Assembly: GCA_965220645.1 (NCBI GenBank)
Contig: OZ244836.1
Location: 1,152,237 to 1,216,236 of the forward strand
Reading direction: 5' to 3'
From: Candidatus Aldehydirespirator sp.
GTDB lineage: Bacteria; Actinomycetota; Acidimicrobiia; Acidimicrobiales; Aldehydirespiratoraceae
Length of the DNA: 64,000 bases
A model generated the notes under the pieces. It saw only the letters and a list, made by a program, of their open reading frames with translations. It was not told where the DNA came from and did no database searches. This document shows, one piece after another, positions 1,781-30,157 of the stretch (its first letter is position 1; each line of letters begins with the position of its first letter). Both the position numbers and the translations under genes were made by a program.

Positions 1781-4171
1781 ATGACCATCACCGAAGACGC
1801 TCCGGCCGGTCACGTCGGCTCCCGCCGGCTCCGCAAGGAGGATCCGGCTCTGCTCACCGGCGAGGCCAAGTTCATCGACGACCTCGCCCTGCCCGGCGCG
1901 ATCTGGGTGGGCGTGGTGCGCTCCACCGAGGCTCACGCCAACATCGTCGGCATCGACGGCTCGGCTGCGCTCGAGATCGACGGTGTCAACGAAGTGCTCA
2001 GCGGCGACGACCTGGCTCCGCTGTGGGGCGAGGGCGCCCTGCCGTGCGCCTGGCCGGTAACGCCCGACATGAAGAACCCGGCTCACTTGCCGGTGGCCCG
2101 GGGCACAGCCAAGTACGTGGGCGACGCAGTGGCGGTTGTCCTAGCCGACTCCCGCTACGCGGCAGCCGACGGCGCTGCGGCTGTCATCGTGGACTACGAG
2201 CCGCTGCCCGCGGTGGTCGAGATCGAGGACGCCGTCGCCGACGGTGCGCCGCTGGTCCACGCCGACCTCGAGTCCAACGAGTGCTACACGTGGGGGCTCT
2301 GGGGCGACAACGCCGCGGCCGTGGACGCCGCGTTCGCGGAGGCCGCCCATGTGGTGAGCGAGCGCTACCTGCAGCAGCGCCTCATTCCGGCGCCGATGGA
2401 GCCCCGAGGCTGCGCGGCGGTGCCGTCGCCGGCCGGCGGCGAGCTCACGCTGTACTCGTCCACCCAGATACCGCACATTCTCAAGGTGATGACCGCGGTC
2501 GTGCTCGGCATCGGTGAGAACAAGCTGCGGGTGGTGGCCCCGTCGGTGGGCGGCGGCTTCGGCTGCAAGCTCAACGTCTACGCCGAGGAGATCCTGTGCA
2601 GCGCTCTCGCGATGCAGCGGGGCGCTCCGGTGCGCTGGACCGAGGGCCGCACCGAGGGCGCCACCTCCACCATCCAGGGCCGGGGCCAGGTCCAGCACAT
2701 CGAGCTGGCCGCCGATGCTGACGGCAAGGTGCAGGCCGTGCGGGTGAAGCTGCTGGCCGACATGGGCGCCTACCTGCAGCTGGTCACGCCGGGCGTGCCG
2801 CTGCTGGGCGGGTTCCTGTACCACGGCTGCTACGACATCGGTCTCTACCTGTTCGAGTGCACGTCGGTGTTCACCAACCGCACGCCTACCGACGCCTACC
2901 GGGGTGCAGGCCGGCCCGAGGCCACCTACGCCATCGAGCGGGCCATGGACTCGATGGCCGTGGCCGTCGGGGTGTCACCCGAGGAGATCAGGGCCCGCAA
3001 CTTCATCCAGTCCGACGCCTTCCCCTACGAGTCGGCCGCGGGGCTGGTCTTCGACAGCGGCGACTACCAGGCCGTGCTCGACAAGGCGATCGCGCTGGCC
3101 GGGCTCTCCGGACGCCGGGCCGAGCAGGAGCAACGGCAGGCCGGGGGCTCCTCCAAGCGGATCGGAATCGGCTTCTCCAGCTATGTGGAGATGTGCGGTC
3201 TGGCCCCCAGCCGGGTGCTGGCGTCACTCGATTACGGCGCGGGCGGCTGGGAGGCGGCCACCGTGCGGATCTCGCCCACTTGCAAGGTGCAGGTGGTGAC
3301 CGGCTCCACGCCGCATGGCCAGGGCCATGAGACGTGCTGGTCGATGATCGTGGCCGACAAGCTCGGCGTCGATCCCGACGACGTCGAGGTCCTGCACTCC
3401 GACACCGCGGTCAGTCCCACCGGCCTGGACACCTACGGGTCTCGGTCGCTGGCTGTCGGCGGCACCGCGGTCTACATGGCCACCGAGAAGGTGATCGACA
3501 AGGCGCGGGCCATCGCCGCCCACCAGCTGGAGGCCAGCGAGGACGACCTGGAGTTCTCCGGCGGCACCTTCCGGGTTCGGGGCACGCCCGAGGCCGAGGT
3601 GCCGCTGGCCGGAATCGCCTTCGCGGCGTTCACTGCGCACGACCTGCCTGACGGGATGGAGCCCAACCTCGAGGCCCACGTCACCTACGACCCGCCCAAC
3701 TTCACGTTCCCCAACGGCACCCACATCGCCGTGGTGGAGGTCGACACCGACACCGGGAACGTGGACTTGATCGACTACGTGGCGGTGGATGACTGCGGCG
3801 TTCAGATCAACCCGCTGATCGTGGAGGGCCAGGTGCACGGGGGCATCCTGCAGGGCGCGGCCCAGGCGCTGTACGAGGACGCCGTCTACAACTCCGACGG
3901 CCAGCTGGTGTCGGCCAACCTGGCCGACTACCTGGTGCCGTCGGCGGCGGAGGCGCCCCGCTTCCGGCTCGACAGCCACGCCTCGCCCAGCCCCACCAAC
4001 CCGATGGGGGTCAAGGGAGTGGGTGAGGCCGGGACCATTGCGGCTGCCCCCGCGGTGATCAACGCCGTGGTGGACGCGCTGCGCGACCTGGGTGTGACCG
4101 ACGTGCCTATGCCGGCGTCGCCCCAGACCGTTTGGAGAGCCATTGCCGATGCCCAAGGAGGTGCGTCGTGA
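1781..4171 (+). CDS. coxL: molybdopterin-binding large subunit, form-II CoxL-like
   Basis: ATG 1781 lies 1 nt after the coxS stop. N-terminus reads RRLRKEDPALLTGEAKFIDD and the length is ~796 aa. The active-site loop reads AYRGAGR. Confidence 0.9.
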   Translation: MTITEDAPAGHVGSRRLRKEDPALLTGEAKFIDDLALPGAIWVGVVRSTEAHANIVGIDGSAALEIDGVNEVLSGDDLAPLWGEGALPCAWPVTPDMKNPAHLPVARGTAKYVGDAVAVVLADSRYAAADGAAAVIVDYEPLPAVVEIEDAVADGAPLVHADLESNECYTWGLWGDNAAAVDAAFAEAAHVVSERYLQQRLIPAPMEPRGCAAVPSPAGGELTLYSSTQIPHILKVMTAVVLGIGENKLRVVAPSVGGGFGCKLNVYAEEILCSALAMQRGAPVRWTEGRTEGATSTIQGRGQVQHIELAADADGKVQAVRVKLLADMGAYLQLVTPGVPLLGGFLYHGCYDIGLYLFECTSVFTNRTPTDAYRGAGRPEATYAIERAMDSMAVAVGVSPEEIRARNFIQSDAFPYESAAGLVFDSGDYQAVLDKAIALAGLSGRRAEQEQRQAGGSSKRIGIGFSSYVEMCGLAPSRVLASLDYGAGGWEAATVRISPTCKVQVVTGSTPHGQGHETCWSMIVADKLGVDPDDVEVLHSDTAVSPTGLDTYGSRSLAVGGTAVYMATEKVIDKARAIAAHQLEASEDDLEFSGGTFRVRGTPEAEVPLAGIAFAAFTAHDLPDGMEPNLEAHVTYDPPNFTFPNGTHIAVVEVDTDTGNVDLIDYVAVDDCGVQINPLIVEGQVHGGILQGAAQALYEDAVYNSDGQLVSANLADYLVPSAAEAPRFRLDSHASPSPTNPMGVKGVGEAGTIAAAPAVINAVVDALRDLGVTDVPMPASPQTVWRAIADAQGGAS

Positions 4172-4986
4172 TTCCCGCTGCTTTCGACTACGAGGTTGCC
4201 GAGTCCGCCGACCACGCGATTTCGTTGCTGGCCGAGCACGGCGACGACGCCAAGCTCCTGGCCGGGGGCCACAGCCTGATACCGATGATGCGGTACCGGC
4301 TGGCCACGCCGAGCGTTCTGGTGGACGTGGGCCGTCTCGACGACCTGCGCTACATCCGGGCCGGCAACGGCACGGTGTCGATCGGGGCGCTGACCCGCCA
4401 CAGCGAGCTGGAGCACTCGGCCGCGCTGGCCGCAGCCTGCCCGATGCTGGCCTCGGTGGCCGCGCTGGTGGGCGACCCGGCGGTGCGCCACCGGGGCACC
4501 CTCGGCGGCACCCTTGCCCACGCTGATCCGGCGTCGGATCTGCCGGCGGCCGTGCTGGCGCTGGGCGGCACGATCGTGGCCCAGGGGCCGGGAGGGTCGC
4601 GTGAGATCGCGGCCACGGACTTCTTCACCGGGTACTTCGAGTCGGTGCTGGCCGACGACGAGATGATCACCGAGGTGCGGGTCCCGTCCGGCGGAGGCGG
4701 CTGGAACTACCAGAAGTTCAACCGCCGGGCCCAGGACTGGGCCATCGTCGGGGTGGCCGTGGCCGACAGCGGCGCCGGTGTGAGCCTGGTCAACATGGGC
4801 TCCACGCCGGTTCGGGCCTCCGGAGTTGAGGCCGCGCTCGCGGGCGGCGCCTCAGCCGCCGACGCGGCCGCGGCAGCCGCCGACGGGCTCGACCCCCCCG
4901 ACGACCTCAACGCCGACGCCGACTACCGCAGCCACTTGGCCAGGGTGCTAACCGAGCGGGCCCTCAACGCCGCCGGAGTGGCATAA
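4168..4986 (+). CDS. coxM: FAD-binding medium subunit of the molybdoenzyme (CoxM-like)
   Basis: GTG 4168 overlaps the coxL stop (GTGA). Contains the LLAGGHSLIPMM FAD-binding motif. Confidence 0.85.
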   Translation: MIPAAFDYEVAESADHAISLLAEHGDDAKLLAGGHSLIPMMRYRLATPSVLVDVGRLDDLRYIRAGNGTVSIGALTRHSELEHSAALAAACPMLASVAALVGDPAVRHRGTLGGTLAHADPASDLPAAVLALGGTIVAQGPGGSREIAATDFFTGYFESVLADDEMITEVRVPSGGGGWNYQKFNRRAQDWAIVGVAVADSGAGVSLVNMGSTPVRASGVEAALAGGASAADAAAAAADGLDPPDDLNADADYRSHLARVLTERALNAAGVA

Positions 4987-5023
4987 GCGCTGATTGACGC
5001 CCCGCCGGCCGGGCGGTTTGGTC

Positions 5024-6037
5024 TCAGGCGCCGCCCTCGGGAATCGTGACGACGATCTTGCCGATGTGCTCGCCGGCCTGCTGTACCCGTTGTGCCTCGG
5101 CCAGCTCGGTCCAGTCGAGTGTGTGGCTGACATGGGGGCGCAGCCTTGAGTCCATGGCAGCAGCCAGGTCGCGCAGGGCGGCCACGCTGCCCACGGCGAT
5201 GCCTTGAAGCTTGATCTGACGGGTCATCACCGACGTCACCGGGACCTGCGCTGCGCCGAAGCCCGACAGCACCCCGATGACCGCGACGGTGCCGTCGATG
5301 CGGGCTGCCTTGACCGACTGGGCCAGGGTGTGCTCGCCGCCGAGGTCGATCACCAAGTCGGCGCCCCGGCCGCCGGTGATGTCGATGACGGTCTTGTGCC
5401 ACTCCGGGGTCGAGCGGTAGTTGATGAGATGGTCCGCGCCGAGGAAGCGGGCGGTCTCGAGCTTCGCGTCCGACGACGAGGTGATGATCACGGTGGCGCC
5501 GCTGGCTGCAGCCAACTGCACCGCGTAGAGCGACACCCCGCCGGTTCCCTGCGTGACCACCACGTCCCCGGGCTTGACGTCGCCTGCGCGTAGGGCGCTC
5601 CAAGCAGTGACGCCGGCACAAACGAGCGTGGCCGCCTCGCCGTCGCTGAGGTGGGCCGGCGCTGCGACCAGGGCGTTCGCCGGGCACACCATGTGCTGCT
5701 GGAGCCATCCGTCGCCGGTGTCGCCCGGCGTGACTCGCAACTTCTCCCGGGTCAGGGGCCCGTCGAGCCACAACGGATGGAACGCACCCAGCACCCGGTC
5801 GCCTACGGCCACGTCCCGCACATCGGACGCCACCGCCACAACCTCGCCGCAGCCGTCGGTCATGGGCACCCGGGGCCAGGGACCCCGGATCAGTCCCATC
5901 AGGTTGACCAGATCGTGGTAGTTCATGCTTGAGGCCCGCACCGCCACCACGGCTTGGCCGAGCCCGGGCTCGGGCACAGGGCGATTCTCGGGCCGGGGCG
6001 GCTCACCCGGGCCGTCCATCACCATGGCAATGCTCAT
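5024..6037 (-). CDS. NADPH:quinone oxidoreductase / zinc-independent MDR family oxidoreductase
   Basis: Contains VAVRASSMNYHDL, the GTGGVSLYAVQLAAASGA Rossmann motif, and a C-terminal GKIVVTI. The start is chosen at MSIAMVMDG (6037); ATG 6067 is also possible. Confidence 0.8.
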   Translation of the reverse strand: MSIAMVMDGPGEPPRPENRPVPEPGLGQAVVAVRASSMNYHDLVNLMGLIRGPWPRVPMTDGCGEVVAVASDVRDVAVGDRVLGAFHPLWLDGPLTREKLRVTPGDTGDGWLQQHMVCPANALVAAPAHLSDGEAATLVCAGVTAWSALRAGDVKPGDVVVTQGTGGVSLYAVQLAAASGATVIITSSSDAKLETARFLGADHLINYRSTPEWHKTVIDITGGRGADLVIDLGGEHTLAQSVKAARIDGTVAVIGVLSGFGAAQVPVTSVMTRQIKLQGIAVGSVAALRDLAAAMDSRLRPHVSHTLDWTELAEAQRVQQAGEHIGKIVVTIPEGGA

Positions 6038-6191
6038 GAGCAGAGATTGCCCACGGCGGGTTGCCAACGGTTCGCGTCTGTGCGTAACCGTTCGACCCTC
6101 ACCGGCAGCAGGCTACGGCACCCGAGGATGTACCTCGATCGGCGGCGGACGCGATAGTGCGATCGAGCGGGCGACGGGCAACACTGGCGGC

Positions 6192-7772
6192 ATGTCTCGA
6201 CTTCCTTCTGCCGTCACCCGCACCTCGGTGTCAGGGATGGTCTCGACCGTCGACCACCTGGCCACCGGCGTGGGGGTGGACCTGCTGCGAAGGGGCGGAT
6301 CAGCCGCGGACGCGGCGGTGGGGGCCAACGCGGTGCTGGCGGTTACGTCTCCCCACATGTGTGGGCCCGGTGGCGACGTGTGGGCGCTGGTGCACGACGG
6401 GGGAGAGGGCCCTCCGGTTGCGCTCGACGCAGCCGGGTTCGCGGGCTCGGGAGCCGATCCCGAGCGGCTGCGGGCGCAGGGTTGTGACGAAATGCCGCTG
6501 CACGGCGACGTCGCCTCGGTCACCGTGCCCGGCGCGGTGGACGGCTGGCTGGCCCTGCACTCCCGGTACGGGCGCCTGCCGCTGGCCGACGTCCTGGCCG
6601 AGGCCGTCCGCATCGCCGATGTCGGGTTCACGGCCTCGCCGCTGCTGGCCGAACGAGCCGGCGAGGTGTCCGGCGTGGACGGCAACACCGATGTCCCGGC
6701 CGGCCTGCAGGCCGGCGATGTGGTGCGGCGGCCGGGCACAGCCCGTGCGTTCAGGGCCATCATCGAGCGGGGCCGTGACGGTTTCTACGGCGGCGAATTT
6801 GGCGAGGGCCTCATCGCGCTCGGCGCCGGCGAGTACAGCGAGGACGACCTGGCCCGGCCGATCGCCCGCTGGGTGGAGCCGGTGCGGGCTGAGGCCTTTG
6901 GCCATGTGCTGTGGACGGTTCCGCCTACGTCTCAGGGCTACCTCACCTTGGCCGGTGCATGGATTGCCGGCGGTCTTGACTTGGGTGACTCCGACGACGG
7001 CCGCTGGGCCCATCTGCTGATCGAGGCGGCCTCACATGCTGCCCACGACCGGGTCGGGGTGCTGTACGACGGCGCCGACGGCCAGGCGCTGGTAGATCCG
7101 GCCCGGCTCGGTGCCCGGCGCGACGGAATCGACCCCGAACGGGCCTCCAACGTCGCCGCTCCCGCGGCCATGGGCGACACCACGTATCTGTGCGCGGTGG
7201 ACGGCGACGGCATGGGCGTGTCGCTCATCAACTCCAACGCCAACGGCTTCGGCGCGCTGCTGATGGCCGGCAGCACGGGGATCTTCCTGCACGACCGGGG
7301 CCTCGGCTTCAACTTGGTGCCCGGCCATCCGGCTGAGTACGGGCCGGGCCGCCGCCCGGCCCACACCCTGTCCCCGGCGCTGGTCGCCAACTCCGACGGC
7401 TCACTGCGCCAGGTGCTGGGCACGATGGGAGGCGACTCCCAGCCCCAGATCCTGTTGCAGCTTCTGGCCCGCACCCTGGGGCTCGGCCAGTCGCCGGGCG
7501 CGGCCATCCGCGCTCCCCGCTGGGTGCTCGGCCCCGACGACCACGACGCCGGCTTTGCCACGTGGCGCCCCGGCCAGGGTCGGCGGGTGCTTGTCGAGGA
7601 TTCCGCCACCGGCTGGCACGAGTCCCTAGCTGCCCGCGGCCACAAGACCGCCCTGCGCGAGGAGGCGCCCCACACCTTCGGCCACGCCCACCTCATCGAG
7701 GTCACCGAGCACGGCACCCTCGCGGGAGCCGCCGACCCCAGAGCCCAAATCGGAGTAGCCGCCGGCCTCTAG
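6192..7772 (+). CDS. ggt: gamma-glutamyltransferase family protein
   Basis: Starts MSRLPSAV... with MVSTVDHLATGVGVDLLRRGGSAADAAV. The nucleophile region reads GDTTYLCAVD. The ORF extension back to 5925 overlaps the oxidoreductase on the other strand. Confidence 0.85.
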   Translation: MSRLPSAVTRTSVSGMVSTVDHLATGVGVDLLRRGGSAADAAVGANAVLAVTSPHMCGPGGDVWALVHDGGEGPPVALDAAGFAGSGADPERLRAQGCDEMPLHGDVASVTVPGAVDGWLALHSRYGRLPLADVLAEAVRIADVGFTASPLLAERAGEVSGVDGNTDVPAGLQAGDVVRRPGTARAFRAIIERGRDGFYGGEFGEGLIALGAGEYSEDDLARPIARWVEPVRAEAFGHVLWTVPPTSQGYLTLAGAWIAGGLDLGDSDDGRWAHLLIEAASHAAHDRVGVLYDGADGQALVDPARLGARRDGIDPERASNVAAPAAMGDTTYLCAVDGDGMGVSLINSNANGFGALLMAGSTGIFLHDRGLGFNLVPGHPAEYGPGRRPAHTLSPALVANSDGSLRQVLGTMGGDSQPQILLQLLARTLGLGQSPGAAIRAPRWVLGPDDHDAGFATWRPGQGRRVLVEDSATGWHESLAARGHKTALREEAPHTFGHAHLIEVTEHGTLAGAADPRAQIGVAAGL

Positions 7773-11039: not shown

Positions 11040-11995
11040 CTGATCGCACCCCTCCCGAAAGCGCCGGTCGGCCCGGCGCGGAGGTCGACTCCGGCCTTCT
11101 GGTCGATGTCGAGAAGGACGTGCGCATCCGGGCTCGGATTCGCAGCGGCCTGCGACTGCTGCTGCGGTCCAAGGGCGGCACGGCCGGTGCGCTCGTGTTC
11201 GTCATGCTGGTCGTTCTGGCGGTGTTCGCTCCGTGGATCGCCCCCCACGATCCCCTCCAGCAGACTCTGGGTGACTCCAGGACCCCGCCGTTCTTCGCCG
11301 ACGGCGGCTCCACCGAATACCTGATCGGCACCGATGATCTCGGACGCGACATTCTCAGCCGGATCATCTTCGGAACCCGGGTCTCGCTCGGCGTGTCCCT
11401 CGGCGGCGTTGGCATCGCCATCACGCTGGGCATGACGATCGGCCTCATCGCCGGCTACCGGGGCGGCACTATCGACGCCGTGATCGTGGGGTTCATCAAC
11501 TTGGTCCTGTCGCTGCCCTATCTGCTGTTCGTGGTGTTCTTCGCCGCCGTCGTCGGACGGAGCCTTCTCAACGTGATCCTGATCTTCGGCTTCACGTCGA
11601 TCCCGGTGTTCGCCCGCGTCACGCGGGGCGAGGTCCTGAAACTGCGCGAGAGCACCTTCATCGAGGCGGCCCGAAACGTCGGCGTGCCCGAGGGCCAGAT
11701 CCTGCGGCTGCACCTGCTGCCCAACCTCGTCGGCCCCTTGGCCACGCTGGCCACCTTCGAGATATCGGCCATGATCCTCTACGAGGCCGGCCTCGGATTC
11801 CTCGGCCTCTCGGTCCCGCCCAGCACCCCTAGCTGGGGCAACATGATCAGCTCCGGTCGAGGGGTCCTCGCGATCCGTCCGTGGATCTCGCTGGCGCCCG
11901 GGTTCGCCATCGTGGTGGCCGGGCTCGGACTCAACCTGTTGGGCGACTGGTTGCGCGACGCGCTCGACCCCCGATCCAAGCGGGTGAAGCAGTGA
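11036..11995 (+). CDS. ABC transporter permease (DppC/OppC-like)
   Basis: ATG 11036 overlaps the upstream stop (ATGA). Contains the [16 protein letters not shown] motif and an EAA-like FIEAARNVGVPEGQILRLHLLPN. Confidence 0.85.
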   Translation: MTDRTPPESAGRPGAEVDSGLLVDVEKDVRIRARIRSGLRLLLRSKGGTAGALVFVMLVVLAVFAPWIAPHDPLQQTLGDSRTPPFFADGGSTEYLIGTDDLGRDILSRIIFGTRVSLGVSLGGVGIAITLGMTIGLIAGYRGGTIDAVIVGFINLVLSLPYLLFVVFFAAVVGRSLLNVILIFGFTSIPVFARVTRGEVLKLRESTFIEAARNVGVPEGQILRLHLLPNLVGPLATLATFEISAMILYEAGLGFLGLSVPPSTPSWGNMISSGRGVLAIRPWISLAPGFAIVVAGLGLNLLGDWLRDALDPRSKRVKQ

Positions 11996-12999
11996 ACACC
12001 GCACCACTGATCGAGGTGTGCGACCTCGAGGTGCGGTTCGAGATCCCCGAAGGAACGGTGCATGCCGTGAACGGCGTGACGTTCTCGGTCGCCAGAGGCG
12101 AGACGCTGGCTGTGGTGGGCGAGAGCGGAAGCGGCAAGACGGTGACGATGCTCGCCCTGCTGCGACTGCTCGCCGAACCGCCGGCTCGGATAGCCAGCGG
12201 CACAGCCACGCTCGAGACGGCCAGGGGAACGGTCGAACTCCTTGAGGAGTCGCAGCGCCGGCTGCGGCGGGTCCGGGGGGCCGAGATCGGGTTCATCGCC
12301 CAGGACCCCATGACCTCTCTCAACCCGACGGTGAGGATCTCCACGCAGCTCATCGATGTGATCCGCACCCATCTCGGCCTCTCCAGACGGCAGGCCCGGG
12401 CCCGCGCCATCGACCTGCTCAAGCGGGTGGGAATACCCGACGCGGAGAACCGCGTCGATGCCTACCCCCACGAGTTCTCGGGAGGCATGCGACAGCGTGT
12501 CATGATCGCGATCGCGGTGGCATGCAACCCCCAGCTCGTGATCGCCGACGAGCCGACCACGGCGCTCGACGTCACCGTTCAGGCCCAGATCGCCGAGCTG
12601 ATGAACGACCTGCGCGACGAGCTCGGGATGGCCCTGATCTGGATCACTCACGACCTCGGCGTGGTGGCCGGCCTGGCTGACCGGGTGGCGGTGATGTACG
12701 CCGGCCGGCTCGTGGAGATAACCGACGTGGCCGCCCTGTACGAGCGACCGCTGCACCCCTACACCATCGGGCTCCTGAACGCGCTTCCCAAGATGGGCGA
12801 CCGGGCCAGCCGCTTGACGAGCATTCCCGGCGTGCCGCCTGATCTCGCGGAGGCGCCGACTCACTGCTCGTTCGCGGCTCGCTGTCCACATGTGTTCGAC
12901 CGCTGCCTAAGCGAGGTGCCGCCGCTGATCGAGCCGGTTCCCGACCACCATGTCGCTTGCTTCTATGACGTCGAGGCGGCCGGGCCGAGGAATGACTGA
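11992..12999 (+). CDS. ABC transporter ATP-binding protein (DppD/OppD-like)
   Basis: GTG overlaps the upstream stop. Walker A GESGSGKT, signature FSGGMRQR, Walker B LVIADEPTTALD. Confidence 0.9.
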   Translation: MNTAPLIEVCDLEVRFEIPEGTVHAVNGVTFSVARGETLAVVGESGSGKTVTMLALLRLLAEPPARIASGTATLETARGTVELLEESQRRLRRVRGAEIGFIAQDPMTSLNPTVRISTQLIDVIRTHLGLSRRQARARAIDLLKRVGIPDAENRVDAYPHEFSGGMRQRVMIAIAVACNPQLVIADEPTTALDVTVQAQIAELMNDLRDELGMALIWITHDLGVVAGLADRVAVMYAGRLVEITDVAALYERPLHPYTIGLLNALPKMGDRASRLTSIPGVPPDLAEAPTHCSFAARCPHVFDRCLSEVPPLIEPVPDHHVACFYDVEAAGPRND

Positions 13000-23606: not shown

Positions 23607-24407
23607 ATGAACACCTATCCCGTGCGGGTCGGCAGCTGCCTTTTCACGATGGTCGACCCCGAACGGGGCCACGAGGTGGATTACAACCGCTGGTACGAGC
23701 GCGACCACTTCTACGCCGGGTGCCTGGTCGGTCCCTGGCTGTTCGCCGGACGCCGCTGGGTTGCTACCCGCGAACTCAAGGATCTGCGGTTCCCTGAGGA
23801 CTCGCCGCTGGCCGTGCCCACTGATGCCGGCTCGTACCTGGCCATCTACTGGGTTCACGAGGGCCGTCACCGCGAGCACTTCGCCTGGGCCATCGACCAG
23901 GTGGTGGAGCTCTACAAGCACGAGCGGGGCTTCAACAACCGGATCCACGCCCACACCGTCCTGCTGCACAAGCCGTGGTCGCACTACCGCGACGACGACC
24001 CTGTTCCGATCGAGCTGGCCCTCGACCACCCCTACCAGGGTCTGGCCGTGGTGGCGGTCGACCCCGCCGACGGCACCGACAACGACGGCCTGGACGCTCA
24101 CCTGCGGGCCGAGGCGCTGCCGGCGCTGATGGACGGCTCGACGGTGTCATCGGTGGTGTCGTGGAGCTACATCGACCCGGCCGGCGGCGAGACGGAGCGG
24201 GCCCCGATGGACCTGGGCACCCCGGCCGGGCCGGCCGAGCGCCAGATCCAGATGTTCTTCCTCGACGGCCACCCGGCCGACGCCTGGGACCGGTTCCGGG
24301 CCTACGCCGCCGGGCTGGCCGACGCCGGTGCGGGCGAGGTCGTGTTCGCGGCGCCGTTCCTGCCCACCATCGTCGGCACCGACACCTACACCGACCAGCT
24401 CTGGTAG
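23607..24407 (+). CDS. conserved hypothetical protein
   Basis: Long ORF with GC3 bias. The N-terminal LFTMVDPERGHEVDYNRWYERDHFYAG looks familiar from actinobacterial hypotheticals, but I cannot name a family. Confidence 0.5.
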   Translation: MNTYPVRVGSCLFTMVDPERGHEVDYNRWYERDHFYAGCLVGPWLFAGRRWVATRELKDLRFPEDSPLAVPTDAGSYLAIYWVHEGRHREHFAWAIDQVVELYKHERGFNNRIHAHTVLLHKPWSHYRDDDPVPIELALDHPYQGLAVVAVDPADGTDNDGLDAHLRAEALPALMDGSTVSSVVSWSYIDPAGGETERAPMDLGTPAGPAERQIQMFFLDGHPADAWDRFRAYAAGLADAGAGEVVFAAPFLPTIVGTDTYTDQLW

Positions 24408-24509: not shown

Positions 24510-26114
24510 GTGAACAAGAGACTGACCGCCGTTCCGGCGCTAGTGGTGATGGTCGTAGTAGCAGCCGCCGCCTGCTCGGGCGGGTCCAGCGGGTCAGAAC
24601 TCGTTGAATCGGGGGACCCCTACGAGAATGCGGAGATCCGCCCCTTCGATCCGTCGGTTGATGTGACCGGCGAACCGGGTGAGGTTGTCGAACAGGACTG
24701 TCCCGAGCACATGGCCGGAGCAGGCCTCCGGTGCGTGTGGGTCATAGTCCCCATCGATCGTGCCGATCCGGCCGCGGGGATCCTGGGTGTGAGCGTGGTG
24801 ATCCGCCCCGGCACCGGCGACGAGTCGCTCGCACCGCTCGCCGTGCTCCAGGGAGGCCCAGGCGGGGCCAGCAGCGACTTGGCCCTGGTGTTGCCGAGCC
24901 GCCCGTACGCGCAGGTTCTCATCGACCAGCGGGGCGTCGGCTTCGGCAGCTTCAACTCCTGGTGCCCTGAGCTGCTCAACGCGCTGGTGGCGATGGTCGA
25001 GGCGACCAGCGAGAAGGCCGACGCCATCGGCTCAGGGGCTGCCGGCCAATGCTCCGACCGCTTGAGGCAGGACCCAGGCTTTGCCAGCATCACCACCGCT
25101 GCCCACGCGGCCGATGTCGGTGATGTCATGGCCGCGCTCGGCCACGAGCGGTGGCTCCTCTACGGCGTGAGCTACGGGACCACGATCGGTCTGGAAGTGC
25201 TGAGAGACGTCCCGGCGGGGCTGGCCGGTGCGGTGCTCGACGGCCTGTATCCCGCGAACCTTGACGCTGACGCGGCGGTCGCGGAGGGTGCTGAGCGGGT
25301 GGTCCGCGAGTTCGACGCGGAGTGCAGTGACGACCCCGTCTGCTCGGCCATCCTGGCTGACGCCGCCGACGGGCAGACCACGACCATGGAGGTCCTGCTC
25401 GCGAAGCACATCGATCGCTTCAATGCAGACCCGGTGGTGGTGAACTTGTCCGCGGACGAGACGACCATAATGGAGCCGATCGACGCGTTGATCGACGGCG
25501 ACTCCGTGGCGGGGGCGGTGTTCCAGATGCTCTACAACGAGTTCACCGCGACTCTAGTCCCCAGAGTACTGGCGGGGCTGGAGCGACCGCCCGATGCTGA
25601 TCGGGTGGAGGAACTCGGCCTTGTCACCGTGCCCAAGCTGGTGGCCTTGATACGGGTCGAGTCGGCCTCCCAGCAGTTCCACTCCGGCGCTCCGTCGACG
25701 TTCGCAGCCGTGGCATGTGCCGAGGGTCTGCGGCACGCCTCGGGACCGCCCGCGGGAATCAGCGGCTTCGCCGCGGCGATTGTCGGGGAGGGACTGTCCA
25801 GGCAATGCGAGCCGTGGACGGTAGCAGAGTCCCCACTGCCGTTGGAGCCGGTGCAGAGCGATCTGCCGGTGCTGCTGATCTCCGGGTGGTTCGACCCGAT
25901 CACGCCTCCGAGCCTCGCCGAGGCAGCCGCGGAGTATCTGCCCCGCAGCACGCACATCGTGAGCCGCACCCGTGGCCACGGAATCTGGGTGTGGGGCTAC
26001 GACAGCTGCGTCGACCGGATCGTCGCAGACTTCCTGGCCGAGCCAGGCACCGAACTCGACACCGCCTGCGCCTTGGAGGACCGCCCGCTTCGCTGGCAGC
26101 CGCTTCCCGCCTAG
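24510..26114 (+). CDS. secreted alpha/beta hydrolase lipoprotein (tripeptidyl-aminopeptidase/S33-like)
   Basis: GTG start. Signal peptide plus lipobox AAAACSG. Nucleophile elbow GVSYGT and a C-terminal RTRGHGIW His region. Confidence 0.75.
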   Translation: MNKRLTAVPALVVMVVVAAAACSGGSSGSELVESGDPYENAEIRPFDPSVDVTGEPGEVVEQDCPEHMAGAGLRCVWVIVPIDRADPAAGILGVSVVIRPGTGDESLAPLAVLQGGPGGASSDLALVLPSRPYAQVLIDQRGVGFGSFNSWCPELLNALVAMVEATSEKADAIGSGAAGQCSDRLRQDPGFASITTAAHAADVGDVMAALGHERWLLYGVSYGTTIGLEVLRDVPAGLAGAVLDGLYPANLDADAAVAEGAERVVREFDAECSDDPVCSAILADAADGQTTTMEVLLAKHIDRFNADPVVVNLSADETTIMEPIDALIDGDSVAGAVFQMLYNEFTATLVPRVLAGLERPPDADRVEELGLVTVPKLVALIRVESASQQFHSGAPSTFAAVACAEGLRHASGPPAGISGFAAAIVGEGLSRQCEPWTVAESPLPLEPVQSDLPVLLISGWFDPITPPSLAEAAAEYLPRSTHIVSRTRGHGIWVWGYDSCVDRIVADFLAEPGTELDTACALEDRPLRWQPLPA

Positions 26115-26168
26115 ACGCTGCCGGCCCGCTTCGTTGGCAGCCGCTCCGTAGCGGTAGAGACTGGGGCC

Positions 26169-26960
26169 ATGATCCTCGAAGGACGAACCGTGCTAGTGGT
26201 GGGTGTCGGCCCCGGATTAGGCGCCAGCTGTGCCCGACTGGCGTTCCGGGACGGCGCCAACGTGGCCGTCATGGCCCGTAGCGCTGATCGCCTGGCCGAG
26301 GCGGCCGCCGAGCTCGACCCCACCGGTGACCGGGTGATCGCCTGCCCGGGCGACGTCACCAGCCAGGAGGACTGCACTGCCGCCGCCGACGCCGCCGCCG
26401 AGCGATTCGGGGCGCTTCACGCAGTGGTCAATGTGGCTGCCCTCGACACCCAGAAGGGAGCGTGGCACCGGACGACCGACGAGGACTGGAAACTCAACCT
26501 CACCGTCAACGTGCTCGGCGCGGTGCATGTGGTGCGGGCGGTTGAGCCCCACTTCGTAGCGGCCGGCGGGGGGTCGGTGGTGCAGATCGGATCGCAGGCG
26601 TCCATGAGGCCGGTGGCGGTGTTCCCCCAGAGCCCGTACGGGGCGGCCAAGTCGGCGCTGCTGTCGTTGGCGCGCGATCTAGCTGCGGAGTTGGGTCCGT
26701 CCGGGATCAGGGTCAACACGGTGGTTCCGAGCTGGATGTGGGGGCCCAACGTCAAGCTCTACTGCGAGTGGCAGGCCGGCACGAGGGGCATCACCGTCGA
26801 GGAGGTCAAGCACGAGATCGCCCAGGAGATGGCCCTGCGGGAGATGCCCACCGACTCCGATGTCGCCGAAGCGGTCGTGTTCCTGGCGTCGGAACGGGCT
26901 CGGATGATCACCGGCCAGACGCTCGTGGTCAACGCCGGGCACTTCTACCCGGTCGCCTGA
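26169..26960 (+). CDS. SDR family oxidoreductase
   Basis: Contains VVGVGPGLGAS (a TGxxxGxG-like motif), YGAAK catalytic Y-x3-K, and GQTLVVNAG near the C-terminus. Confidence 0.85.
   Translation: MILEGRTVLVVGVGPGLGASCARLAFRDGANVAVMARSADRLAEAAAELDPTGDRVIACPGDVTSQEDCTAAADAAAERFGALHAVVNVAALDTQKGAWHRTTDEDWKLNLTVNVLGAVHVVRAVEPHFVAAGGGSVVQIGSQASMRPVAVFPQSPYGAAKSALLSLARDLAAELGPSGIRVNTVVPSWMWGPNVKLYCEWQAGTRGITVEEVKHEIAQEMALREMPTDSDVAEAVVFLASERARMITGQTLVVNAGHFYPVA
26810..26960 (+). repeat. 151-bp direct repeat, copy 1 (functional 3-prime end of the SDR gene)
   Basis: Matches 28331..28481 with 3 mismatches, all at synonymous third codon positions. Confidence 0.95.
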
Positions 26961-27010
26961 CTGCACGACCCCCCAAGGTAAGCGCCATTCGGGCCGGGCC
27001 GACCAGCCGA

Positions 27011-27403
27011 CTATACGTCCACGATTCTGACGCTGGCACCCAGTGCTGCGAGCAGCGGCGCGATGTCGCTCCGGTCGGATGTGACGACACCGACATCCTC
27101 TAGGCGTGCAGCCTTTGCAGCCGTCACTGCGACCGATGCGTCGATGACATCGTCGGTGCCTGTCTGGCCGCAGAGAGCGCCGGCCTCCCGTGCGATCTGT
27201 CCGTCCAGCGGCACTTCATCGGACAGTTTGAGAGCCCGGGCCAATGGCGCCTGGCGAGGACCGCCCCTCCAGGCTTGGGCGACAGCTCCAGTCGGCACTT
27301 GCACGTCGCTGGGTCGGTCTGCGGTGTACAGCCTCGTCCACAGGTGCCGGTCTCCATGCTCGAGGGCGATCAGCGCGCCGGTGTCCAGCACGAAGGTCGT
27401 CAT
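27011..27403 (-). CDS. vapC: PIN-domain toxin (VapC-like)
   Basis: N-terminal MTTFVLDTGALIALE (first acidic residue), then DASVAV and TSD acidic residues. It overlaps the upstream small gene by 4 nt. Confidence 0.8.
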   Translation of the reverse strand: MTTFVLDTGALIALEHGDRHLWTRLYTADRPSDVQVPTGAVAQAWRGGPRQAPLARALKLSDEVPLDGQIAREAGALCGQTGTDDVIDASVAVTAAKAARLEDVGVVTSDRSDIAPLLAALGASVRIVDV

Positions 27404-27627
27404 CCGTACATGTCCTTGCGGGCTTGGGCGATCTCCTCCTCGGTGAAGGCACCATGCTCGGCTTGGTACTCATCGAACAGCTTCTTCCATTCGCGGCGCC
27501 GGGTCTCATCGTCGAGCGGATGGGCCGGCCTCGCACCGCTGGCATCGTCCGAGTCTTGGATGTTGCGGGCATCGTAGGCGGGGGATCCGGCTGTCACGAT
27601 TCTCCTTCCGTCATCAAGGCGTCGCAT
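27400..27627 (-). CDS. putative antitoxin (VapB-like) of the PIN toxin
   Basis: 75-aa ORF whose stop overlaps the vapC start (ATGA). I did not recognise a fold-specific motif. Confidence 0.5.
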   Translation of the reverse strand: MRRLDDGRRIVTAGSPAYDARNIQDSDDASGARPAHPLDDETRRREWKKLFDEYQAEHGAFTEEEIAQARKDMYG

Positions 27628-27852
27628 CTGGTTCTTGCGGGCAATCTAGCGTGTGATCATCAGCGGGACAACACTAACCAACATAGATATACACTAAAAT
27701 ACTGTCAGCTGCGAATGACACGGCAGCCATCGGCGCCGCGGCTTCCGAGGTGGTACGGGAAATAGAGTGTGACTGCAAGCGCCACCCACCGGCAAGGGCC
27801 GTCCGTGGGTCTGTTGGTGGCGTGGGCTCGACCCCAGAACAGGAGTAGCCGT

Positions 27853-28305
27853 ATGAGCCGCACCATGGAGGATGTTCGCCAGTTCGCAGGCGCCGACCAG
27901 GGCCTCGCAGTCGTGTCGTTCGGGCGTCCTGACCAGTCGGTTCACTCCTCGCTGGTCAACGCCGGGGTGATGGCCCACCCGGTGACCGGCGAGGAGGTGG
28001 TGGCGCTGGTCGTGCGGAGCAGCGCCGCGAAACTCCGTCATTGGCGCCGCACCCCGCGGGCCACCATCGTCTTCCGGTCGGGCTGGTCGTGGGTGGGCGT
28101 GGAAGGCGCCACGACGATCATCGGCCCCGACGATCGATTCGACGGCTTCGACCCGTCATCGGTTCCCCGGTTGCTTCGGGCCGTGTTCACCGCTGCTGGC
28201 GGCAGCCACCAGGACTGGGACGAGTACGACCGCGTGATGGTGGCCGAACGCCGGACCGCGGTCTTCATCCACCCCTCCCGCATCACCGGGGTCGGCCAAC
28301 CCTGA
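27853..28305 (+). CDS. PPOX-class (pyridoxamine 5-phosphate oxidase-like) probable F420-dependent protein
   Basis: AGGAG lies 7 nt upstream of ATG 27853. Contains QGLAVVSFGRPDQSVHSSLVNAGV ... RRTPRATIVF ... WVGVEG, typical of the actinobacterial PPOX class. Confidence 0.7.
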   Translation: MSRTMEDVRQFAGADQGLAVVSFGRPDQSVHSSLVNAGVMAHPVTGEEVVALVVRSSAAKLRHWRRTPRATIVFRSGWSWVGVEGATTIIGPDDRFDGFDPSSVPRLLRAVFTAAGGSHQDWDEYDRVMVAERRTAVFIHPSRITGVGQP

Positions 28306-28330
28306 ACCGGAATCACTCGAGGGTTGTGAC

Positions 28331-28481
28331 GCACGAGATCGCCCAGGAGATGGCCCTGCGGGAGATGCCTACCGACTCCGATGTCGCCGAAGCGGTCGTG
28401 TTCCTGGCGTCGGAGCGGGCCCGGATGATCACCGGCCAGACGCTCGTGGTCAACGCCGGGCACTTCTACCCGGTCGCCTGA
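28331..28481 (+). pseudogene. orphan duplicate of the SDR gene 3-prime end (last 49 codons plus stop), repeat copy 2
   Basis: Encodes HEIAQEMALREMPTDSDVAEAVVFLASERARMITGQTLVVNAGHFYPVA*, identical in protein to the SDR C-terminus. No upstream SDR body is present. Confidence 0.85.
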
Positions 28482-28514
28482 CCGAGCGACGGCGGGATCG
28501 GCCGTTAGAGAGGG

Positions 28515-28787
28515 CTAGAGGCTGAACACGGTGCCTACAGCAAGCAACAGGATCAGCGCCACCCAGAAGGCAGTGCCTATCCACCCGATGCTGTAGCCGA
28601 CCGCCGCCAAGCCGCGATGCGGGGCTCCCGACAGTGCCTTTTGTATTGCGGTACGGCCGAGGATCAACGCAAACGGGAACAAGACGGGGAGCGCCACGCC
28701 CAGGACAGCCAGGGCGCAGGCAAGGACGGCCTCACTGTTGCTGTCAGGAGGTGCTGCTTGCTCCGTTAGGTTGGCCACGGTGCGCAT
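28515..28787 (-). CDS. small membrane protein (DUF4190-like)
   Basis: 90 aa from MRTVANL with two hydrophobic segments and a LILGRTAIQK...GLAAVGYSIGWIG pattern. The longer ORF version overlaps ccmA and is rejected. Confidence 0.5.
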   Translation of the reverse strand: MRTVANLTEQAAPPDSNSEAVLACALAVLGVALPVLFPFALILGRTAIQKALSGAPHRGLAAVGYSIGWIGTAFWVALILLLAVGTVFSL

Positions 28788-28817
28788 CGTACTGCCCACG
28801 TCAACCCCGCCTCGATC

Positions 28818-29465
28818 GTGAGAGTCGTTCGGCTGCGCGATGCGGTCGTGCTGCTGGGGGGCTTTCCGGCGCTGGCCGGGGTCGACCTCTCCGTCGAGCG
28901 CGGCGAGGTAGTTCTCGTAAGGGGTCCCAATGGCGCGGGCAAGTCCACGCTGCTGCACCTTTGTGCCGGGCTGTTGCGCCTGTCGGAGGGTCAGGGCGAG
29001 GTGCTGGGCTGTGACCTGGGCGTTGACCGGGCTGCGGTGCGCCGCCGGGTGGGTCTGCTGGGCCACGACACCGCGCTCTACGGCGAGTTGACCGCAGCCG
29101 AGAACCTGCAGGTATGGGCCCGGGCTTCCAGAGTGGGCGAAGCCGACGTGGGTGGCGCGCTCGATCGCCTAGGGCTGCCTCCGCGGCTGCGCGACGTCCC
29201 CACCGACCGGCTGTCTGCGGGGCAGCGTCGCCGGGTGGCGCTGGCCGCGATCGTGGTACGCCGACCCGAGCTGTGGCTGCTTGACGAGCCCCACGCCGGG
29301 CTCGACTCCGACGGGCGCGAGATCGTGGACAGCATCGTGACGGCCGCGGCCGCGGCCGGTGCTGCCGTGGTGCTGGCCTCCCATGAGGCGGGACCGGCCG
29401 GTGGTCTCGCCACCCGCACTGTGGCGATGGCGGGCGGCACGCTGCCAGAGGGGCTGGGACCGTGA
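28818..29465 (+). CDS. ccmA: heme exporter ATP-binding protein CcmA
   Basis: GTG start. Walker A GPNGAGKST, signature LSAGQRRR, Walker B LWLLDEPHAGLD. It is followed by ccmB-H. Confidence 0.85.
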   Translation: MRVVRLRDAVVLLGGFPALAGVDLSVERGEVVLVRGPNGAGKSTLLHLCAGLLRLSEGQGEVLGCDLGVDRAAVRRRVGLLGHDTALYGELTAAENLQVWARASRVGEADVGGALDRLGLPPRLRDVPTDRLSAGQRRRVALAAIVVRRPELWLLDEPHAGLDSDGREIVDSIVTAAAAAGAAVVLASHEAGPAGGLATRTVAMAGGTLPEGLGP

Positions 29466-30157
29466 CCGTCTGGCGCGAGCTCAGCCTGTTCGCAGGCGAC
29501 GCCGGTTTGGTGGCCTCCAAGGACCTGCGCATCGAGTGGCGGGCCCGCACGACGCTGGGACAAGTCTTGCCCTTCGCGCTTCTGGTCCTGGTGCTGTTCG
29601 GCTTCGCCCTCGACGCCAACCGGCCCACGCTGCGGCTGGCCACACCAGGCCTGCTGTGGATGACCGTGCTGTTCGCGACCGTGGTGGCGGTGCAGCGGTC
29701 CGTGGCCGTGGAGTCCGCCGATGGAGCCCGCCGGGTGCTGCTCCTCAGCGGGATGGCCCCGGCGGCCGCGTTCGTAGGCAAGACCGCCGCGGTGGCGGTG
29801 CAATTGCTGGTCGTGGAGGCGCTGCTGTTACCGGGCGTGGTGCTGCTGTACGACGCGAGGATCGAGTCGATCCCTTTGGTGGCCGCAACGTGCGCGGCCG
29901 CGACGGTGGGTCTGGCCGCCGCCGGTAGCCTGCTCGGTGCTGTGGTAGCAGGAGTGCGAGCCCATCAGACGGTCCTGCCGATCCTGCTGCTCCCGGTGTC
30001 GGCGCCGGTGCTGATCGCGGCCACCCGGGCCTTTGCCGACGGGCTCGGCACGGTCGCGGTGGACGGGTGGTCCTGGGTGGGCCTGCTCGTCGGCTTCGCG
30101 GCGGTGAACGCTGTGCTGGGCGCGGTCGTCTACGGCCCGCTGCTGGAGGACGCATGA
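29462..30157 (+). CDS. ccmB: heme exporter membrane protein CcmB
   Basis: GTGA overlap with ccmA. Polytopic membrane protein of ~231 aa in the ccm position. Confidence 0.8.
   Translation: MTVWRELSLFAGDAGLVASKDLRIEWRARTTLGQVLPFALLVLVLFGFALDANRPTLRLATPGLLWMTVLFATVVAVQRSVAVESADGARRVLLLSGMAPAAAFVGKTAAVAVQLLVVEALLLPGVVLLYDARIESIPLVAATCAAATVGLAAAGSLLGAVVAGVRAHQTVLPILLLPVSAPVLIAATRAFADGLGTVAVDGWSWVGLLVGFAAVNAVLGAVVYGPLLEDA

Follow-up and report, generated by a model that had tools for sequence, protein, structure and literature searches.

The entry of small toxin-antitoxin modules, and of segments of one to three genes, without a transposase or an integrase is poorly understood. The closest described class is the insertion with long target duplication, so named by Kobayashi's group (Nobusato et al. 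2000, as cited in PMC2853133). It was described 25 years ago for restriction-modification genes: the insertions reported by Furuta et al. 2010 (PMC2853133) carry no mobility genes and are flanked by target duplications of 30-400 bp, often across start or stop codons. A related process is homology-facilitated illegitimate recombination (de Vries & Wackernagel 2002; Prudhomme et al. 2002; Meier & Wackernagel 2003, as cited in PMC5361080 and PMC3240628), which Kirchberger et al. 2017 (PMC5361080) proposed for displaced orphan genes in type VI secretion system (T6SS) clusters. Genomic islands, integrative and conjugative elements (ICEs), actinomycete ICEs (AICEs) and prophages that integrate at gene 3' ends also produce direct repeats ending at the 3' end of the target gene, where the incoming replacement end keeps the gene intact. 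The locus described here lies in a 64-kb window (the whole stretch of DNA that was analysed, 64,000 nucleotides of contig OZ244836.1) of Candidatus Aldehydirespirator, according to record titles a sponge-associated, uncultured lineage of Acidimicrobiia. In this window the last 151 bp of an SDR gene are repeated around a VapBC-like gene pair and a PPOX-class gene. We interpret the repeat, with a probability of about 0.6, as the scar of an insertion with long target duplication that was formed without a site-specific recombinase.

The genome under study is called G000, and the other G and L labels denote congeneric genomes, metagenome contigs or fetched loci. Direct repeats at 26810-26960 (copy 1, c1) and 28331-28481 (copy 2, c2) of the window are identical at 148 of 151 positions, with an offset of 1,521 nt. 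The match begins at 26810, which is the last base of codon 214 in SDR, and extends one base beyond the TGA stop codon (26961 = 28482 = C). The mismatches are found at 26849/28370 (CCC in c1, CCT in c2; Pro227), 26894/28415 (GAA, GAG; Glu242) and 26900/28421 (GCT, GCC; Ala244), and all three are third-position changes, synonymous in the SDR frame. A first reading of the window, made from the letters without database searches (the sequence-only reading), had reported this duplication with its period, its three differences and their synonymous nature, and all of this was confirmed. Its list of what lies between the copies, namely a PIN toxin, a small partner, an AT-rich stretch and a PPOX-class gene, also holds with refinements: the partner is more likely 65 aa long, and the AT-rich core is located at 27660-27710. 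The insert between the copies measures 1,370 bp and contains no transposase or integrase. In the whole genome (3,586,714 bp, two contigs) the 151-bp sequence occurs twice, the next-best matches being paralogous SDR genes with 76-82% identity. The same repeat pair, with the same left joint, is present in G025, which is another species and was assembled independently. The two genome copies and the independent assembly indicate that the repeat pair is neither a chance match nor an artefact.

The likeness to the published insertions (PMC2853133) covers the size of the insert, which is below 20 kb and carries no mobility gene, and the repeats, which are longer than 30 bp and single at a related empty site (here G023). 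The repeats in that class often lie over a stop or start codon and leave the neighbouring gene intact, and the cargo includes an addiction-type module, as at this locus. The main difference concerns the cargo, since the published cases involve restriction-modification genes, whereas here a VapBC-like pair travels with a PPOX gene that is native to the locus. The locus is thus of the same rearrangement type, outside the restriction-modification set, and it is a new, well-resolved case of a known but mechanistically unexplained class. The published class still lacks an established mechanism. Here the empty site, donor-type layouts, two carriers of the joint and a decayed remnant all occur in a single genus and form a natural series of unusual completeness. 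From this series can be read one joint in a homologous gene, one putative joint at microhomology, the swapping of toxin-antitoxin alleles and the later homogenisation of the repeats. No published description of long target duplications around toxin-antitoxin modules was found in the literature searched, only papers citing the restriction-modification work.

The distribution of the arrangement was examined by searching 36 congeneric species genomes with the 3.9-kb region, from which 20 loci were fetched, and by scanning a metagenome collection with a conserved SDR-end pattern, which added four contigs, none of them with two copies. The interval between SDR and ccmA showed at least seven layouts in these genomes and contigs and is a recombination hotspot in Candidatus Aldehydirespirator. 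The simplest layout is SDR-ccmA with a spacer of ~90 nt (G036, G026, G018, G003 and G017), and G023 has SDR-DUF4190-ccmA. The PPOX gene occurs in a tightly packed SDR-PPOX-ccmA arrangement (G008, G011, G028) and in SDR-vapBC-PPOX-ccmA without a second SDR end (G002, G009c17, G012, L065, L068), and L067 has SDR-vapBC-ccmA. In G009c16 and L066 (mgL066) a 27-nt SDR-end remnant followed by the native spacer is found between PPOX and ccmA, in the order SDR-PPOX-(remnant and spacer)-ccmA. The layout of the window, SDR-vapBC-PPOX-(151-nt SDR end)-DUF4190-ccmA, is that of G000 and G025.

PPOX lies immediately upstream of ccmA in G005, G008, G009c17, G011, G020 and G028, and also in G007 by DNA spacing; in G005 and G020, and again by DNA spacing in G007, it does so even though SDR sits elsewhere. 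The distribution of the layouts indicates that PPOX is a native neighbour of ccmA, that vapBC comes and goes independently, and that the 151-bp duplication is rare. PPOX and its 27-nt downstream spacer are native beside ccmA in many species, and are therefore not island cargo. The SDR end is single in G023 and the other congeners, G025 excepted and G009c16 having its 27-nt remnant. Among the 36 genomes the joint of G000 recurred in one other species only, G025, and the exact joint (PPOX spacer to SDR codon 215), used as a pattern, gave 0 matches in the metagenome collection. An uninterrupted SDR locus with a single copy and without vapBC and PPOX, which the sequence-only reading had proposed to look for in relatives, exists in G023, and the two-copy layout, which that reading allowed might be ancestral and uniform, is confined to G000 and G025.

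Two further loci show other rearrangements of the same interval. In L043 (G035), at ~4319-7437, PPOX lacks its normal C-terminus and is fused in frame to ~80 residues resembling RCC1/BNR-type repeats; ~2.6 kb of other DNA separates PPOX from ccmA, and a 3'-end remnant of a G025-type vapC lies between SDR and PPOX. In L044 (G021), at 11619-12593, nearly all of SDR is deleted and a 61-nt piece (codons 209-229) remains before vapC, flanked by a truncated orthologue of the gene at 23607-24407 of the window, so that vapBC has outlived its upstream gene.

In a tree of ccmA+B, G023 is the sister of G000 and G025 and, having a single SDR end and DUF4190, it represents the empty-site state. The DUF4190-like gene is confined to these three genomes, which form one clade in that tree, and marks the recipient haplotype. 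The trees of SDR and of PPOX instead place G000 and G025 beside G009c16 and L066 and not beside G023, whose SDR groups with those of the distant G003 and G017. The divergence between G000 and G025 at 4-fold sites is mosaic. It reaches 0.31 in upX (our own label for a conserved hypothetical gene upstream) and 0.36 in SDR codons 1-97, falls to 0.11 in codons 98-214 and 0.07 in codons 215-263 (c1), rises to 0.55 in vapC, is 0.11 in PPOX, and returns to 0.33 in ccmA and 0.26 in ccmB. The drop from 0.36 to 0.11 indicates a recombination breakpoint within SDR near 26460, which fits an anchor crossover and could also date from a later exchange. The block formed by the SDR 3' part, PPOX and c2 is younger than its flanks. 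The vapBC alleles differ between the two carriers of the scar, that of G000 having its closest relative (92% nucleotide identity in vapC) in the distant-clade genome G009c17 and that of G025 grouping with L067, suggesting a later exchange through conserved flanks.

Inspection of the joints points to the origin of each copy. To the right of c2, CCGAGCGACGGCGGG matches CCGGGCGACGGCGAG, the spacer that follows the single SDR stop codon in G018, G036 and G026, indicating that c2 is the gene end of the resident chromosome, with its native context on the right. To the left of c2, the 27 nt that follow PPOX agree at 20 of 27 positions with the spacer between PPOX and ccmA in G002, a genome without a second SDR end. 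The added piece is the DNA from c1 through PPOX and the 27 nt behind it; c1 is continuous with the inserted DNA and so is in effect a replacement end. Just upstream of the right-hand joint, the spacer at 28309-28322, GGAATCAC--TCGAGG, aligns with SDR positions 26787-26802, GGCATCACCGTCGAGG, at 13 of 16 positions; the patch is collinear with the joint and lies 8 nt 5' of it. The joint of G025 is exactly identical to that of G000, indicating one event common to both genomes.

Two other candidate traces of SDR ends were rejected. A decayed copy upstream of PPOX, as the footprint of a vapBC insertion, was not supported by local alignments with shuffles in five genomes (p 0.33-0.66), and the PPOX-ccmA spacers of G002 and G012 could not be taken for heavily deleted SDR-end copies, the matches found by eye having p values of 0.81 and 0.35.

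The differences between c1 and c2 were polarised with 14 outgroup SDR ends. The A at 26894 and the T at 26900 are derived in c1, that is, in the working gene, and are absent from nearly all relatives, and the only c2-specific change in G000 is the T at 28370. At columns 52 and 55 of the repeat, both copies of G000 have T and C, while both copies of G025 have C and G; the G025 state is that of most relatives at column 52 and of all relatives at column 55. At no site do the copies fall together by type, c1 with c1. This pattern, in which both copies agree within a genome and differ between genomes, points to gene conversion or to repeated exchange between the repeats. The c2 sequences of G000 and G025 differ at 4 of 151 positions, against a neutral expectation of 10-17 from neighbouring 4-fold sites (P 0.02 to 2.5e-4). 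Gene conversion of c2, together with purifying selection on c1, would explain why only synonymous differences are seen. The sequence-only reading had taken the synonymous-only divergence as a sign that both copies evolved as coding sequence in different lineages, which is not supported, since two of the three changes arose in c1 itself and the copies co-vary. As a practical warning, a gene end and an orphan copy of it that differ only at synonymous sites are no proof of two coding histories, since polarisation and gene conversion can explain the pattern.

In the reconstruction that we favour, the recipient would have been a Candidatus Aldehydirespirator chromosome with the SDR-DUF4190-ccmA layout still present in G023, and the incoming DNA would have come from a lineage in which PPOX stood behind SDR and before ccmA, vapBC being present or absent. 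At its left end, this DNA would have entered by homologous recombination inside SDR. The right end, 27 nt past the PPOX stop codon, would have had no homologous partner and may have been joined illegitimately to SDR codon 214/215 at the imperfect microhomology. The incoming SDR end would thus have become the end of the working gene (c1), and the resident end would have been displaced 1.5 kb downstream as a non-functional orphan (c2). Later, the vapBC module would have been swapped by homologous recombination through its conserved flanks, and c2 would have been kept nearly identical to c1 by gene conversion. The most economical mechanism would be homology-facilitated illegitimate recombination, in which one joint is homologous and the other illegitimate; an equivalent route would be for a circularised fragment to insert by the Campbell mechanism, and both routes yield the type of rearrangement described by Kobayashi's group.

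This process and the displacement model built on it (PMC5361080) resemble the locus in that a conserved upstream gene acts as the anchor and a non-homologous end is joined illegitimately. As proposed there for orphan T6SS immunity genes and for the 3' ends of Rhs and contact-dependent inhibition (CDI) genes, the resident downstream part is kept and shifted as an orphan. In Rhs and T6SS arrays, however, the orphan is a different toxin tip or immunity protein, whereas here it is a nearly identical and apparently useless gene end, and 151 bp are duplicated because the illegitimate joint falls inside the anchor gene. The experiments on homology-facilitated illegitimate recombination also differ from the present case, as they were done with bacteria capable of natural transformation and with conjugating E. 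coli (PMC3240628), not with Acidimicrobiia, and the experimental events usually delete recipient DNA. An insert flanked by repeats is prone to RecA-mediated deletion and an addiction module would counter-select its loss, so that survivors would often carry toxin-antitoxin pairs; here, too, the pair may protect the segment from deletion by recombination between c1 and c2.

Several points weigh against this reconstruction. The microhomology patch of 13 of 16 positions has a p value of 0.16 on composition alone and is meaningful only through its position at the joint. No exactly matching donor was found, and the illegitimate joining is a deduction. Recombination of a linear fragment at one end is indistinguishable from the Campbell-type insertion of a circularised fragment. 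Only two sites are informative for gene conversion, and both orphan-specific substitutions, one in G000 and one in G025, are at third positions, with a chance of about 1 in 9 (p ~0.11), as selection on a translated orphan might also produce. The 27-nt SDR-end remnant behind PPOX in G009c16 and mgL066 has a different joint, so the event may be older, may have excluded vapBC, or may have happened twice.

A genome-wide repeat scan revealed a second case ~1.78 Mb beyond the end of the window. The pair C1:2996052-2996337 / 2997294-2997579 (286 nt, 93.7% identity) duplicates the 3' end of a gene for a ThDP-enzyme-like protein of 588 aa (a name given by eye from the sequence) and ends at the stop codon plus one base. 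The genes that it encloses have an AT-rich promoter and encode an antitoxin of the Phd/YefM type (Pfam E 1e-10) and a PIN toxin (E 3e-12). The orphan copy, which has kept its native downstream flank, is decaying and contains one premature stop codon and four amino-acid replacements. The copy attached to the gene is closest to G017 (14 differences, versus 19-23 for the others), which also shares the first ~25 nt after the ThDP stop codon, i.e. the left junction, and has a different cargo and a vapC fragment there. The incoming DNA at this locus demonstrably brought its own gene end. The presence of this second case in the genome suggests a recurrent integrase-free route.

Other pairs of this kind were observed. 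A third pair, C1:2152364-2153486 / 2157604-2158726 (1,123 nt, 97%), derives from a large A2M-like gene, whose 3' end it duplicates; its copies lie 5,240 nt apart and enclose E1 alpha/beta-like dehydrogenase genes (all names by eye), which is the same architecture with cargo other than a toxin-antitoxin module. Adjoining the SDR gene of the window, the 22-nt end of the hydrolase gene (GCCCGCTTCGCTGGCAGCCGCT) at 26083-26104 recurs 41 nt downstream at 26124-26145 with one mismatch, another small gene-end duplication. In L140, a contig of a Solibacteraceae metagenome-assembled genome (MAG), the last 62 or more nucleotides of an FtsX-like permease gene (by eye) are exactly repeated around vapBC (1-1503), and L133, from an Actinomycetota MAG, has the end of a gene for a small membrane protein on both sides of 3.7 kb that include vapBC (2247-6281). 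Among 79 vapC-related loci, several flanking repeats proved to be something else, such as a tRNA att site (L084) or a second vapB paralogue (L097). A 488-nt pair at C1:1229897/1232734 was rejected as a gene-end duplication, as it consists of small lipoprotein-like open reading frames (ORFs) duplicated in DNA of lower G+C content.

The arrangement could alternatively be a working attachment device that needs no site-specific recombinase, in which c1, cargo and c2 move between lineages by RecA alone and the shared layout of G000 and G025 reflects spread and not only descent. We regard this as doubtful. It would work by either of two routes, a double crossover (the SDR body with the recipient SDR, and c2 with the recipient SDR end) or excision as a circle by c1 x c2 recombination followed by Campbell re-insertion, the toxin-antitoxin pair killing cells that lose the segment. 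Movement as a unit would fit the low-divergence block that G000 and G025 share, which starts within SDR (~26460) and ends exactly at the c2 stop codon (28481) between outer flanks that are both ~3x more diverged at 4-fold sites, but vapBC in the middle of the block is so diverged (0.55) that the block has not moved recently as one piece. SDR and PPOX of the two carriers group with G009c16/mgL066, where PPOX is likewise followed by a remnant of the SDR end, and this grouping disagrees with the ccmA/B tree; in that tree, however, G000 and G025 are sisters, and the vertical descent of a single scar suffices. The homogenised copies are as expected from repeated c1 x c2 exchange, and at the ThDP-enzyme locus the gene-attached copy most resembles that of a distant species in which the left junction is the same, yet the junction pattern found no further carriers in the metagenome collection. 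At least two more of the 79 related vapC loci (L140 and L133) have a gene 3' end duplicated around the module, a frequency for which no enrichment over background is claimed. It is tentatively conceivable that duplicated gene ends are general recombinase-free attachment sites, the gene body and the orphan end providing two homology arms onto the same gene in naive relatives. If so, the cargo, typically a toxin-antitoxin pair, would travel with a copy of the 3' end of its upstream gene while the addiction module opposes repeat-mediated loss, at least two active examples would be present in this genome (SDR/vapBC+PPOX and ThDP-enzyme gene/Phd-VapC), and gene cassettes would have in duplicated gene ends a general vehicle that needs RecA alone. 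Some vapC loci of Acidobacteria and Actinomycetota seem to show this design again.

The sequence-only reading had instead proposed a decayed island, or a satellite mobilised in trans, that integrated site-specifically in the SDR 3' end, the copies being attL and attR and the integrase being lost or acting in trans. What remains of this proposal is the insertion at a gene 3' end, seen against the empty site of G023, and the replacement end; the integrase-borne att site is not supported, and we consider the model as a whole improbable. Direct repeats that end at the stop codon of the target gene, one of them completing it, would suit such an island, as would the empty site and the about 20 tyrosine recombinases encoded elsewhere in the genome. 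In actinomycete integrating elements, att identities of ~100 bp are possible. The tyrosine-recombinase (PF00589) matches, however, numbered 22 genome-wide and were all > 390 kb away (no genome-wide search for serine recombinases was made), and neither carrier has a recombinase in the insert, where only vapC, vapB and PPOX are found, or in the adjacent syntenic core flanks, in agreement with what the first reading had noted. The cargo is not foreign, since PPOX and its spacer are native beside ccmA and vapBC occurs at the same place without the repeat: five other genomes or contigs that lack a second SDR end have it between SDR and PPOX. The left edge of the repeat falls in the native PPOX-ccmA spacer at the microhomology patch and is not a conserved element end. 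In the 36 genomes and four metagenome contigs no recombinase-bearing element was found at the SDR site, which is used by no other element, and the 151-bp sequence, regarded by that reading as an att-like site to be sought beside recombinases, has no further copy in the genome. Known islands at gene 3' ends differ from the locus in these same respects, including the integrase or excisionase that it lacks. The possibility that c2 is the leftover of a second complete SDR paralogue once located between PPOX and DUF4190 is hardly credible: SDR paralogues are common in the genome, but upstream of 28331 there is only PPOX and native spacer with nothing SDR-like, no congeneric genome has two adjacent SDR genes here, and c2 has 98% identity with the adjacent gene, against at most 82% for true paralogues. 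It is also very unlikely, slightly more so than the island, that c2 is itself under selection as coding sequence, for example as a 51-codon ORF from GTG 28326 encoding a C-terminal SDR segment. The frame is intact in both G000 and G025, the four differences between their c2 copies are all at third positions, both copy-specific changes are synonymous-equivalent, and divergence is below that of neighbouring 4-fold sites; two of these four sites, however, co-vary with c1 and are explained by conversion, and the remaining two give p ~0.11. A GAGGG motif precedes the GTG, but the spacing is just 2 nt and the motif occurs natively in the spacer behind PPOX in G002, a genome that lacks c2. The analogous orphan at the ThDP-enzyme locus has a stop codon and four replacements, and the copy in G009c16 has shrunk to 27 nt.

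The toxin-antitoxin module of the scar is VapBC-like. The 130-aa protein scores below threshold against Pfam PIN (E 0.024), and a profile built from nine homologues matches the VapC structure 5k8j with E 0.015. Its AlphaFold model (pLDDT 73) aligns with VapC structures at TM-scores of 0.66-0.71, and all of the top 23 Foldseek matches are VapC or PIN-domain structures; it is thus predicted to have the PIN fold and to be a VapC-like toxin. Residues D7, D85/D88 and D110 are invariant among the nine homologues, and the usual second acidic position is an invariant Q43 (alignment by eye). The stop codon of the partner gene overlaps the vapC start (ATGA). Homologues begin at an equivalent Met, and a Shine-Dalgarno sequence, GGAAGGAG, lies 5-6 nt upstream of GTG 27597, indicating this codon as the likely start and a partner that is probably 65 aa long. 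The partner had no meaningful match in Pfam, NCBIfam, PHROG or PDB profile searches, and in particular none to an antitoxin or DNA-binding family; its position and translational coupling are what suggest an antitoxin role.

Compared with described VapBC modules (M. tuberculosis VapBC15, PDB 4chg; Shigella VapBC, PDB 3tnd), the pair shares a PIN-fold toxin of ~130 aa with conserved Asp residues, a small upstream gene whose stop codon overlaps the toxin start, an AT-rich promoter region upstream, and a patchy allelic distribution at odds with the species tree. It differs in that the toxin falls below the Pfam PIN threshold and has Gln at position 43, which is Glu in many VapCs, and in that the partner has no recognisable DNA-binding domain (no ribbon-helix-helix, AbrB or Phd match); toxicity and neutralisation are predictions only. 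In L042 (G012), at 4817-5686, an extra solitary vapB-like gene lies between SDR and a complete vapBC, which suggests stacked or partly deleted modules. In L074, a 2.8-kb contig (JAKZVK010000546.1) of a Bryobacterales MAG binned as Acidobacteriota, a vapC is 75% identical to that of the window, as is the allele of G025; this is either a mis-binned Aldehydirespirator fragment or a cross-phylum transfer.

Table 1. Features from the SDR region to the start of the ccm operon, in window coordinates.
Feature	Position	Strand	Remarks
Conserved hypothetical gene (upX)	23607-24407		
Alpha/beta hydrolase	24510-26114	+	
SDR gene, intact, 263 aa	26169..26960	+	Pfam adh_short_C2 E 2e-49; NCBIfam PRK07890 278 bits, above cut-off
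c1	26810..26960	+	Last base of codon 214, codons 215-263 and stop of working SDR; right side continuous with inserted DNA
Spacer from SDR stop to vapC stop	26961..27010	.	Left edge of variable vapBC segment; 26% aligned identity to G025 (different vapBC allele)
VapC-like PIN-fold protein (predicted), 130 aa	27011..27403	-	
Antitoxin-like partner, probably 65 aa	27400..27597	-	GTG 27597 start; ORF open to 27627
Divergent control region between vapB and PPOX	27598..27852	.	AT-rich core 27660-27710
PPOX-class oxidoreductase, Rv1155-like, 150 aa	27853..28305	+	
Native PPOX-downstream spacer	28306..28330	.	Ends at putative illegitimate joint; microhomology patch 28309-28322
c2, orphan SDR 3' end	28331..28481	+	1,521 nt downstream; out of frame with PPOX
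Remnant of native SDR-downstream spacer	28482..28514	.	
Small DUF4190-like membrane protein, 92 aa	28515..28793	-	Pfam DUF4190 E 1.5e-4, below threshold
ccmA, first gene of cytochrome c maturation operon	28818..29465	+	Conserved right flank; Pfam ABC_tran E 1e-26

The SDR gene is single-copy and syntenic in more than 30 congeneric genomes, and ccmB follows ccmA in all relatives. The PPOX protein matches TIGR03618 over the full profile length (E 2e-19, 70.0 bits), below the curated cut-off of 79.05, and the PDB entry for Rv1155 over residues 50-146 (E 4e-10). Its membership of the superfamily is clear, and it is probably F420-dependent, although the subfamily cut-off of TIGR03618 was missed. 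The AT-rich core of the control region between vapB and PPOX has 39% G+C, versus 68% across the window, and a promoter-like CTGACA-17-TATGTT lies on the minus strand at 27708-27680. The last ~73 nt of this region (27780-27852) are 98% identical to G025 and form part of the PPOX block.

No Rfam RNA family matched 26000-29500 at E <= 1. A read-through fusion of PPOX and c2 was rejected, as their frames differ, and a long ORF at 28041-28481 was regarded as an overlapping-frame artefact of high G+C content. Both copies of the repeat carry a promoter-like TTGACC-17-GATCAT on the minus strand (26904-26932 and 28425-28453), which is probably a chance match to the consensus.

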